Positions 31,858 to 34,800 of a stretch of DNA of 47,442 nucleotides are shown here, piece after piece. Source of the stretch: a virus (Duplodnaviria > Heunggongvirae > Uroviricota > Caudoviricetes); IMG/VR virus record IMGVR_UViG_2913112809_000004, positions 1 to 47,442 of that record. One strand, given 5' to 3'. Position numbers: made by a program. Positions within the stretch are counted from its first letter, which is position 1; every line of letters starts with the position of its first letter.

Positions 31858-34800
31858 ATCGGCATTATTTCCTCAGACAGGAATATATCGCAACCACTCC
31901 CCCTGAAGAACTGCGGCAAATAATACGTTTAAATAATAAAACTGCAATACACCATAACGTCAAGTTTTGTAAAGTTATTTTTAGATTTCCATTTTGTCGG
32001 CTTTGTATATAAATTTAAAAACAGTTATAAATATGCACAAAATATATTTTATACAACAATTTAATCGCGCATTTTTTAATCAAGCTTCAGAAATAAAAAA
32101 ACCCGCCTGTGGCGGGTTTTTAAGTTCACGTTTCTGGTTAACCTCGCGATACAGCTTTGCGAAGCGTAACTGAATTGAAGCAGCTTATTGCTCACTTTGC
32201 AATAGTTTTTTTTGTGCCGTGAACATTGGTTTATAAAGCATAAATTCAGCAATCATCAGCCATTGATCGATACGACGTCGACAGGTAATTAATGTCCAGT
32301 CAGGATGATTTTCATTTAACTGCTCTGCCATTTTCAGTTTGCTCATTCCCCGCCCTTCATATCGTTGTCGGAGGATGCTAATTAATCCCGGATACTCGAC
32401 CAGCACTTCGCTAATTACCCGATCAATACATAACGCCTCGGCATCAGTACAATGAGACAACCAGCTTTTCTGCTTACCGTCGAGCATTTCCCGCAAAAAT
32501 GCCTCCAGTTCCGTCTTATCAATCCCCGCTTTTTTCATCCTGCGCAGAACTTCATTGATGGCTGTTTTCGTCAATTTTTTGGATGCCAGCAACTGGTTAA
32601 ACATATTCCCCGTCTTACCGCCGCCAATATACGACCAGCGCCCCCACATACGCAGTTTTCCCTGAATCCAGACACTTTCCAGCGTGGTGAGACGAAGGTG
32701 TTCCCCGCTTTTTCCTGTATTTGTTGGGTAAATCATAAATAACCTTCCTTTCTCCAGATTTCTTGTGTGCGAAAAACACCTTCTGCATGCATCAGGCGTA
32801 ATTCTTCTTTGGTGTAATCGCTGGTTTTTACTCTCCCGTCGATTAAATCGTGGCATGAGCTACAGGCAATTGCAGCCTGCATATCGTGTGGCTTTGTCGC
32901 TGTTCCACACGTCCCCGCCAGTCTGTAATGCGCCAGCACGGAAGTTTCGGGATTGTGATTGCAGTAGCCAGGAATTCTGACCTGACACATCTGGCCCCGC
33001 GCCGCTTTACGTAAATCTGCCATCACGCAAACTCCAGCAGCTGTGCAGCCACATTTTCGACTTGTTCCGGAGAGGAAAATTTACGGAACAGAATCCAGTT
33101 CCACAGCACATTCAGTACAGATTTATAAACCTGCTGAAACTCGGTTTCGTCCATATTCGCAAACGCGATGGATTTCGCCCGACGCCCGCGGTTACCGTCC
33201 GGATAAAAATGCTCAGTGTAAAATCCGGCCTGAATGGTTACCCATTCACGGAAGGCGTCAAATGACTTGAGTAATGCCGTATCCTGGGTTCTGCGTGTCG
33301 CAACTGTATTCAGATATTGCTCTGCGGCTTCGCTCAGGGCTGGCGTATGTTCCCTGCCTACCGAGTCACACAGGTAATCAACGAAACCTGACACCAGTGT
33401 TCGTTCGCGAGGCGTGATCGCCCCACCGACCGGAGTCCAGTAATCGAATCCGAGTTGCAGGAGTTTGAAAAAAACGCTTGTGGAATGCGTAGTTACGAAC
33501 ACGCTTAAAGTCAGCGTGTATCCACTCGCCTATTTTTATTTGATGCAGAAAATCGCAACTCTCCGGCGTCGCCGGGAGAAGTAAACCAGAAGAAGTTTGT
33601 TTGACCAGTTGTATATGTGCCATCGGTTTTCTCCGGTGGCACGGTGTTACTCAGCAGGGGGTCAACCCTGTGCTGAATTGTAGATGAATTCACTCAGTCT
33701 CAAAAGCAAAAAATCCAGCCTTAAGTCCTATCTCTTTCAAAGCCTGTAATGATGTGACAAATTCATCTTCACGTAAAATAAAACCGTCCACCATAAGTCC
33801 ATCCACAAAATAAATTAACACAGCACCGCTCTTCCTTTGCTGGGATTGTAAACATTTAATGCGGCAGTGACTGACAATAGTTCCATTCTCAACGCGCACA
33901 GCATAGAGGCCATTTTCACTAAACAATTCATGCAATTCTTCGATTTTCATCTTCAGAATCCTTCCAGATAAATAGCTCTCCCCTTTTCAAGGTCCATCCA
34001 TCTTCTCCCTGCGCGCTACTCAAAACGGATGAATTCTAATTAATCTTTATTTCGAAGCAATCGCAAACGATAAAGCCAAAATAAAAAACAAATACAACAA
34101 ATACAACAAATACAACAAATACAACAAATACAACAATATCGAATGATTAACTAACCATTCGGACAACAAGGCAATATAATTTCAGTTAAAATTATTAATC
34201 CCTTATTCATGAAAAACAAAACCCGCCGAAGCGGGTTAAGTGCGGGTGCGTTGAGGATACCTGACAACTTAAAGAGTGGCGGGGATTGCTCCCCGCCGTG
34301 GCTCTTAACGTTTTTCAACTTCGTAGGCTAAATACGCCGAAAGCTCTGTGTTACCCTGTTTGATGTGCAGTTCGCATAGCGAACCGCGAACCATCCAGAC
34401 AAATACCAGAATGGTGATACAAACCACCACCAGACAAAACACATAGCTCCTTCGCATTACAGCCCCCCCCTGTTAGTTGATTTCTTACTGTTAAGAGGCT
34501 AATCTTTATGTGTCGCATACAGATATGGCCTCAGATTAATGTTAAGCGTCTTGCCGGACGCGTAATGTTAACTGGGGCTTTTCTCTATCTGCCTTTGGTG
34601 TTCATGCCCGAGGCAGATAGCCTCAAGCACCCGCAGTCATTCTACCCGTTTTAGATTTCTCAGCCAACTTTATGCTCACAACATATACAAATTTTCCGGT
34701 TAAAGCTCAACATGTTAGATAGTTTTTGCGTACGCACTATTTTTTTGTGTAAACTGCCTAAAAAGTTTAGCACCCTAAATTGTTAAGGGAAAATTAAGGA

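Follow-up and report, generated by a model that had tools for sequence, protein, structure and literature searches.

Does a Hok-like reading frame found in phage DNA belong to a complete type I toxin-antitoxin (TA) module, and if so, of what type and with what role? The question is raised by a 50-amino-acid (aa) open reading frame (ORF) at positions 34305..34457, on the minus strand, of IMG/VR virus record IMGVR_UViG_2913112809_000004 (Caudoviricetes). The whole stretch of 47,442 nucleotides (nt), referred to here as the window, was analysed, and corresponds to a lambdoid (pro)phage. A preliminary description of this DNA had proposed that the ORF encodes a Hok-like type I toxin, and the proposal is borne out, as the Pfam family HOK_GEF matches the minus-strand ORF with a score of 70.2 bits, compared with a gathering score of 22 bits. 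The locus is very probably an intact, canonical hok/mok/sok type I TA module carried on a lambdoid prophage. The assignment is founded on family membership, on the presence and conservation of the RNA elements that define such modules, and on predicted pairings that covary among homologous loci (Table 1).

The toxin gene and its leader

The translation of the ORF, MRRSYVFCLVVVCITILVFVWMVRGSLCELHIKQGNTELSAYLAYEVEKR, has a basic N-terminus that leads into a hydrophobic stretch, and carries the motifs SLCE and AYE at residues 26–29 and 44–46, respectively. The hydrophobic Hok/Gef N-terminus and both motifs, on which the first identification had relied, are thus all visible in the protein. The HOK_GEF profile (PF01848) aligns over positions 3–42 of its 42 positions (E = 1.1e-19), at a score that is threefold above the gathering score, and PHROG 251, described as "MokW-like host killing", matches with an E-value of 1e-14. 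The exact 50-aa sequence is present in RefSeq as WP_135522799.1, a "Hok/Gef family protein" from Escherichia sp. E4742, and the 90% identity cluster to which it belongs has members in E. coli, E. albertii, E. marmotae, Salmonella, Citrobacter koseri and Enterobacter asburiae. The scan for related loci with the single Hok protein returned nine loci. The toxin was further aligned with HokB, HokC and the HokW-type, IncI-type, IncHI-type and R1/F-type plasmid Hok proteins. The five columns that are invariant in this seven-sequence alignment (C13, T15, R24, L27 and G35) are all preserved in the window toxin, which is 35–59% identical to the other members. A proper alignment, on which the preliminary description had made its identification depend, therefore reveals Hok-family similarity, in agreement with the profile match and with the name of the RefSeq entry.

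The gene is preceded by a sigma-70-like promoter, the −10 box of which is conserved in the family alignments. This promoter places the transcription start (+1) at approximately 34632, which is position 1 of the match to Rfam family RF01794. At the opposite end, an intrinsic terminator is formed by a hairpin (34237..34220) and a U-rich tail, and the transcript ends near 34210. The predicted messenger is highly structured, with a minimum free energy (MFE) of −170.6 kcal/mol and a z-score of −9.0 with respect to 100 shuffled sequences.

The match to RF01794, a family named "sok", covers 34632..34455 on the minus strand and the full model (positions 1–157 of 157), with a score of 97.4 bits for a gathering score of 59 bits. 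It is the only match of this family above threshold in the whole window, opens with GGGUGCUUGAGG, and closes on the hok AUG. As in the window, the K-12 matches to RF01794 lie on the hok strand (502..654, minus, in hokC locus L004, and 567..718, minus, in hokB locus L005), and the curated K-12 sokC and sokB genes sit inside these matches on the opposite strand. The family is therefore built in the hok sense, so that the Rfam match represents the hok 5' leader and Sok is its complement. Automatic annotation from RF01794 as "sok antitoxin" would assign the antitoxin to the wrong strand. A weaker plus-strand match to the same family (34574..34734; 21.9 bits, E = 0.033, below the gathering score) was considered as a divergent second hok leader and rejected, because it reuses the near-palindromic 5' hairpin, is followed by no Hok-like ORF, and is absent at the gathering threshold. 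Sub-threshold Rfam matches to istR (20.9 bits) and ceN48 were taken as noise.

A mok-like leader ORF lies upstream of hok in a different frame. Its ATG, at 34518, aligns with the mok starts of other loci, and the two ORFs overlap by 107 nt. The comparison set comprised 15 loci from Escherichia, Salmonella, Citrobacter, Enterobacter, Erwinia, Serratia and plasmids. A mok Shine-Dalgarno (SD) motif, either GAGG or AGGG, is found at the corresponding position in all 15 loci, and is followed by an ATG 7–10 nt later in 13 of them. The frame and the length of mok vary within the set, where mok occupies a separate frame, is in frame with hok, or forms an upstream ORF of 16–20 codons; it spans 55 codons in the window and in Salmonella, and 66–67 in E. 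coli 95NR1 and Citrobacter. Where mok is in frame with hok, an N-terminally extended Hok results, which is annotated as "MokW protein" in phage mEp460. No protein-family match to the mok ORF was obtained in Pfam and NCBIfam searches, as expected. In the published model it is the translation of mok that counts and not the Mok peptide itself (PMC9841398), and the variable frame and length of mok across loci agree with that view. The upstream SD and a frame that crosses the hok start constitute, as read from the sequence, the arrangement through which the translation of hok would be coupled to that of mok.

In the ribosome-binding region, a run of eight G residues (C8 on the plus strand) closely precedes the hok AUG within the mok frame. 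At the aligned position, E. coli 95NR1 has G5 and Salmonella has GGAGG. The length difference of 3 nt preserves the mok frame. The tract could be a slippage-prone stretch that affects the translation of hok.

Predicted fold-back pairing and antisense RNA

The elements that govern the conformation of hok mRNAs were assigned following PMC9841398, where ucb is the anti-SD sequence located 5' of the mok SD, and the sok-promoter region contains dcb. An initial assignment of ucb to AGCCUCUUA and of dcb to a box at the hok stop codon was dropped, as both elements are defined otherwise in that work. The 5'-terminal dodecamer of the transcript, the translational activator element (tac, mRNA nt 1–12), pairs with CCUCAACGCACCC, the fold-back inhibitory element (fbi, nt 377–389), which is found approximately 50 nt 3' of the hok stop. 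The interaction comprises 12 pairs in the MFE structure, with pair probabilities of 0.97–1.0. In addition, of all sites in the transcript, tac is predicted to bind most favourably to fbi, with −19.8 kcal/mol, a value matched by only 2 of 1000 shuffled sequences.

The long-range pairing is conserved. Each of the 15 homologous transcripts was folded on its own, and in every one of these folds 9 or more of the first 12 nt paired with the last 16 nt; as the 3' ends of the homologues were chosen by a motif complementary to nt 1–6, the independent evidence consists of pairs 7–12 only. Double changes that keep the pairs are found across the 15 loci at tac positions 4, 7, 8, 10, 11 and 12. The independent pairs are those that covary: where the enteric loci have GAGG–CCUC, Erwinia and Serratia have GGAUC–GAUCC. 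In addition, the pnd-type and hokB loci show UA to CG changes at positions 4 and 7. These changes were tabulated from the fold of each individual sequence because the position of a bulge differs between clades in the MAFFT alignment. The RNAalifold consensus of 12 sequences recovers the tac/fbi helix, the 5' leader hairpin (mRNA nt 13–48), which has compensatory changes at 5 of its 10 pairs, and the stem formed by the mok SD with dcb, in which GAGGC is paired with GCCUC.

The GC-rich inverted repeat that follows the hok stop had been taken for the 3' fold-back hairpin of the system. The repeat exists, with arms at 34278–34285 and 34290–34297 that form a perfect 8-bp stem closed by a 4-nt loop, and a GC-rich hairpin is visible at the matching position in other loci. 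The fold-back role, however, belongs to the pairing of tac (34632..34621) with fbi (34256..34244), and by analogy with PMC9841398 the hairpin in the 3' untranslated region (UTR) would act as the 3'-end protector of the truncated mRNA.

The consequences of 3' processing were modelled by folding an in silico truncation series nucleotide by nucleotide. With the 3' end located between 34210 and 34243, where fbi is intact, a closed form is predicted that contains 12 tac:fbi pairs and 6 pairs between the SD and ucb (AAAGCCCCAG), the latter being the 5' arm of a long hairpin that sequesters the mok SD. As fbi is eroded, 7 tac:ucb pairs are formed in the series, and once trimming has reached 34264 or gone beyond it, 5 pairs are predicted between the SD and dcb (UAGCCUCUU), giving rise to the open form. 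A nascent transcript of 30–35 nt is predicted to adopt a local metastable tac hairpin. In these models, trimming reproduces the closed-to-open switch of PMC9841398, in which tac/ucb and SD/dcb replace tac/fbi and SD/ucb.

The complement of dcb forms part of the sok promoter, within its spacer and −10 region. The pattern TTGnnn-17-TAnnnT occurs at a single site in this interval, has a homologous site in 14 of the 15 loci, and aligns with the sequence 5' of the annotated sokC and sokB genes of K-12. The ends of the predicted Sok RNA were likewise placed by alignment to the curated K-12 SokC (59 nt) and SokB (57 nt). In the predicted RNA, a long terminator hairpin and CUUUUCUCUAU come after a 5' single-stranded tail of approximately 15 nt, which is complementary to the mok translation-initiation region. 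The predicted fold of this RNA has an energy of −30 kcal/mol (z = −4.95). The locus thus appears to encode a cis-antisense Sok with a promoter and a terminator of its own. A generic promoter and terminator scan of the window, of the kind proposed at the outset, detected neither the sok promoter nor the Sok terminator, and the search succeeded through homology to SokC and SokB (34477..34505 and 34512..34588). Sok and mok had been expected in 34458..34560, and the side was anticipated correctly, upstream on the hok strand being at higher coordinates. Both are present, and the 5' half of Sok falls in that interval together with the mok start and the sok promoter, but the extent was underestimated: with the mok ATG at 34518, Sok continues to 34588, the leader to 34632 and the hok promoter to 34667.

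Table 1. Coordinates of the hok/mok/sok elements and of the adjoining cassette in the window, with the evidence for each
Feature	Position	Strand	Basis
hok promoter, TTGGCT, 17-nt spacer, TAGAAT (mok-hok)	34639..34667	minus	Consensus scan
Predicted full-length hok mRNA, ~423 nt (3' end approximate)	34210..34632	minus	Promoter, Rfam position 1, terminator
tac, 5'-terminal GGGUGCUUGAGG	34621..34632	minus	MFE, pair probabilities, conservation in 15 loci
5' leader hairpin	34585..34620	minus	MFE, RNAalifold consensus
ucb (anti-SD), 5' arm of the long hairpin	34572..34581	minus	Truncation folds; definition of PMC9841398
mok SD, GAGG, 10 nt 5' of the mok ATG	34529..34532	minus	Seen in homologues
mok-like leader ORF, 55 aa	34351..34518	minus	ORF list, ATG alignment
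dcb, partner of the mok SD in the open truncated form	34493..34501	minus	Truncation folds, RNAalifold
G8 tract in the hok ribosome-binding region	34463..34470	minus	Read from the sequence
hok toxin ORF, 50 aa	34305..34457	minus	ORF list, Pfam PF01848, PHROG 251, identity to WP_135522799.1
GC-rich 3'-UTR hairpin, 8 bp, loop GCAA	34278..34297	minus	Inverted-repeat search, MFE
fbi	34244..34256	minus	Pairing with tac; covariation
Intrinsic terminator, AACCCGC-UUCG-GCGGGUU and U-rich tail	34210..34237	minus	Terminator scan, inverted repeat I3
sok promoter, TTGATT, 17-nt spacer, TAATCT	34477..34505	plus	Conserved site, alignment to K-12
Predicted Sok antisense RNA, ~77 nt	34512..34588	plus	Alignment to curated K-12 SokC and SokB
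Three-gene cassette divergent from hok (363–365, 142 and ~213–234 aa)	34802..36958	plus	PHROGs 12777, 11490 and 9664

Proposed mechanism and competing readings

The hok/mok/sok (parB) system of plasmid R1, the archetype of type I TA modules, has the same order of elements as the locus in the window: hok promoter, tac, 5' hairpin, ucb, mok SD and ATG, dcb over the antisense sok promoter, hok ORF, GC-rich hairpin, fbi and terminator. The predicted closed and open conformations, as well as the metastable nascent hairpin, match those of the R1 model (PMC9841398). The two systems differ in their location, on a plasmid and on a chromosomal prophage with a mok of 55 aa, respectively, and in their toxins, which are only ~43% identical in the seven-sequence alignment (44% in tblastn). 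The ucb/SD hairpin of the window doubles as the Sok terminator hairpin and exceeds in length those of K-12 hokB and hokC and of most of the other loci compared.

On this basis, a mechanism can be proposed in which processing, RNA half-lives, RNase III cleavage and toxicity follow the literature on R1 and HokW. The hok promoter would direct the synthesis of a very stable, highly folded mRNA of ~423 nt from the minus strand. In the full-length form, tac would be clamped to fbi and the mok SD buried by ucb, which would preclude both the translation of mok and hok and the binding of Sok. Slow 3' exonucleolytic trimming is expected to remove the terminator together with fbi. Once trimmed, tac would pair with ucb and the mok SD would shift to the dcb hairpin, rendering the mRNA translatable and, at the same time, a target for Sok. 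The antisense promoter would be constitutive and would produce an unstable Sok of ~77 nt, whose 5' tail would pair with the mok start region, block mok and hence hok, and mark the duplex for RNase III. When the supply of Sok stops, the trimmed mRNA would be translated and the 50-aa Hok would enter the inner membrane and kill or lyse the cell.

The role of such a module in a prophage has been addressed experimentally for hokW-sokW of the lambdoid Stx2 prophage Sp5 of E. coli O157:H7 Sakai. This type I TA locus is toxic, its sokW neutralises hokW in a manner that depends partly on RNase III and Hfq, the HokW toxin rises after mitomycin C, and the locus aids lysis, its deletion halving phage release (PMC8621323). 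The hokW-sokW/MokW loci, such as that of mEp460, occupy the same lambdoid slot as the locus in the window, between the replication/nin genes and the Q-antiterminator region. By analogy with hokW-sokW, the most likely role of the module is to help lysis and phage release upon induction, when Sok would fall and Hok would rise. Prophage stabilisation and phage exclusion are alternative roles.

Several observations weigh against an intact and functional module. The G8 tract stands where GGAGG is usual, and mok, with 55 aa, is shorter than the 66–67 aa of the closest E. coli and Citrobacter loci. The toxin scores below the cut-offs of the NCBIfam HokA equivalog NF007290 (70.7 compared with 89) and of the Hok subfamily NF007279 (61.2 compared with 73); it therefore represents a divergent subtype, for which the name HokA is unsuitable. 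The sok promoter has a weak −10 box, TAATCT, and lies below the threshold of the generic scanner. In the truncation series, the MFE structure remains closed for 3' ends at 34255..34261, and therefore the exact processing end matters. Furthermore, Pedersen and Gerdes are said to have reported in 1999 that many chromosomal hok loci of laboratory E. coli are inactive. The locus might accordingly be a relic that has kept the hok/sok architecture while its toxin is no longer expressed or toxic, like several hok loci of K-12. The G8 run, the earlier stop in mok relative to 95NR1 and Citrobacter, the subfamily scores and the documented inactivation of chromosomal loci would all fit such a relic, as would an apparent frameshift in the adjacent DUF1367 gene, a hint of prophage decay. 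Nevertheless, no insertion sequence (IS) or rearrangement breaks the locus, and both promoters, tac, ucb, the mok SD and ATG, dcb, the hok ORF, fbi and the terminator are intact and correctly spaced. The mok gene of Salmonella is also 55 aa long, which makes the short form a normal variant, and the 107-nt overlap with hok that translational coupling requires remains. In addition, toxins with 76–96% aa identity are retained in Salmonella, Citrobacter, Enterobacter and E. coli. In view of this, we regard an inactive relic as improbable.

A different possibility is that the module works as proposed but serves in prophage addiction, by post-segregational killing, or in abortive infection, rather than in lysis. 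The R1 hok/sok system reportedly excludes phage T4, an observation attributed to Pecota and Wood (1996), and post-segregational killing is the founding function of that system (PMC9841398, PMC8621323). The setting is compatible as well: the slot is a variable-cargo hotspot, with neighbours that differ in 95NR1, mEp460 and E2348/69, of the kind in which defence and moron genes tend to gather. Conversely, the sole experiment on a hok gene in this slot, with hokW-sokW of Sp5, gave a lysis and release phenotype (PMC8621323), and no PADLOC model matches the 50-aa Hok protein. The sequence does not separate the two roles, and an addiction or abortive role is a genuine possibility, although not the one we would expect. 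By comparison, the notion that no TA system is present, and that a chance hydrophobic ORF happens to be flanked by ordinary terminator hairpins, is practically negligible. Short hydrophobic ORFs and GC-rich hairpins are common in phage intergenic DNA, but the Pfam E-value of the ORF, the full-length Rfam match, the RefSeq Hok/Gef entry and RNA pairings that covary across genera refute it. An intact hok/mok/sok module is, therefore, the reading that we retain.

Relatives, mosaic origin and genomic setting

A comparison with other hok loci reveals that the leader and the toxin gene of the window have different closest relatives. Between +1 and the mok SD, the leader shares 98% identity with that of the HokW-type locus of mEp460 (L002), while identity falls to 57% in the hok coding sequence (CDS) and is 81% in the 3' UTR. 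The opposite is observed with the Salmonella locus L011, for which the values are 66% (leader), 96% (hok CDS) and 98% (3' UTR). The locus reads, from these identities, as a mosaic of a HokW-type leader and a toxin gene of the Salmonella-prophage type. The two parts meet close to the start of mok, and the sequence to which the 5' tail of Sok is complementary is unlike both the mEp460 and the Salmonella types.

With respect to the hokW-sokW subtype, represented here by the MokW-annotated mEp460 locus, the window therefore shares the slot and the leader RNA but does not carry an orthologous toxin, the proteins being ~35% identical. The fbi and terminator sequences of mEp460 closely match those of the window, and both loci match PHROG 251. 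The mok gene of mEp460 is in frame with hok, whereas that of the window is not. Given that the complement of the Sok tail differs, SokW would probably not neutralise the hok mRNA of the window.

The toxins that are 76–96% identical in aa sequence belong to prophage hok loci of Salmonella enterica, Citrobacter braakii and Enterobacter (L011–L013) and of E. coli 95NR1 (L001). The Salmonella, Citrobacter and Enterobacter leaders are only 61–72% identical to that of the window and are devoid of the extended ucb/SD hairpin. With toxins this close and leaders this divergent, the type shared by the window and 95NR1 is therefore taken to be a recombinant of two lineages. The whole mosaic locus is ~95% identical in E. 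coli 95NR1 and in ~60 other complete E. coli records. In a broader search with a 601-base query around the locus, matching sequence was present in 4644 of the 5426 complete E. coli genomes; the median number of places per genome was 2 and the maximum 10.

Among plasmid toxins, the closest is the IncI-type/MOBP Hok (for example WP_001387489.1, from a plasmid of E. coli O104:H4), with 59–60% identity over the full length and the motifs FVWMVR..SLC and LAYEV in common; it is probably the PndA type of the pnd system. The corresponding plasmid locus displays a compensatory tac/fbi change (GGGCGC with GCGCCC), and its leader is only 53% identical to that of the window. HokB and HokC of K-12 are more distant, with 35–40% protein identity, and K-12 hokC has IS186 directly downstream, while the window locus is free of IS elements.

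In the window, hok is flanked on one side by minus-strand genes (rem, DUF1367, YbcO and a DUF1133/Q-like gene) and on the other by plus-strand variable cargo. In phage mEp460, E. coli 95NR1 and E. coli E2348/69, this slot is occupied by genes for "MokW" or Hok. The cargo of the window is a divergent cassette of three genes, whose products match only PHROGs of unknown function, with no Pfam match and no meaningful PADLOC match; a PADLOC match to PDC-S54 (E = 0.002, 15.7 bits) was taken as noise. The preliminary description had placed hok beside a candidate operon. The adjacency holds, but a specific link between the two does not. The first cassette protein is 98% identical in E2348/69, where it stands beside a Hok that is only 33% identical, and the second and third genes of the E2348/69 cassette are similar in size to those of the window. 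In 95NR1, by contrast, a near-identical toxin (48 of 50 residues) is found beside a KilA-N gene, and the cargo of mEp460 in this slot is a protein of ~450 aa. A functional linkage was rejected on these grounds: cassette and toxin types occur with different partners in E2348/69 and 95NR1, and therefore assort independently. The cargo side of hok looks like a variable moron or defence hotspot.

Other features were noted in the vicinity. The DUF1367 gene (33023..33623, minus strand) spans 601 nt, compared with 600 nt for the intact gene of 95NR1. Its N-terminal 53 aa (PHROG 319, profile positions 1–53) are encoded in ORF 33378..33623, and its C-terminal part (Pfam, profile positions 50–198) in the overlapping ORF 33023..33502. 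The interval between the hok terminator and the rem-like gene contains a perfect tandem repeat of the 9-bp unit AACAAATAC (34087..34136; 5.6 copies, 100% matches). Two adjacent tRNA genes (31713..31863, minus strand; Rfam tRNA scores of 65.6 and 72.3 bits) are found 3' of the Q-like antiterminator region. tRNA genes downstream of the Q region are typical of lambdoid and Stx-type phages.

The system is thoroughly known and the exact toxin is already in RefSeq; the locus is thus not a discovery, and only the mosaicism of leader and toxin and the strand trap in the RF01794 match are mildly new. The practical value lies in annotation, as Sok, mok, tac, fbi, ucb and dcb, all of them unannotated, are now placed on coordinates. 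Likewise, the hok locus should not be counted within the adjoining three-gene cassette, because the two modules assort independently. A more tentative proposal, which we put forward as rather doubtful, is that a HokW-type leader (promoter, tac and the extended hairpin of ucb and the Sok terminator) was joined, close to the start of mok, to a toxin gene with its 3' UTR from the Salmonella/Citrobacter prophage lineage, with a Sok tail unlike that of either parental type, that such swaps may yield Sok specificities that do not cross-react, and that this copy might help to time lysis upon prophage induction rather than addict its host. If it were true that swaps generally yield new Sok specificities, this would explain how one genome tolerates up to ten hok-related places.

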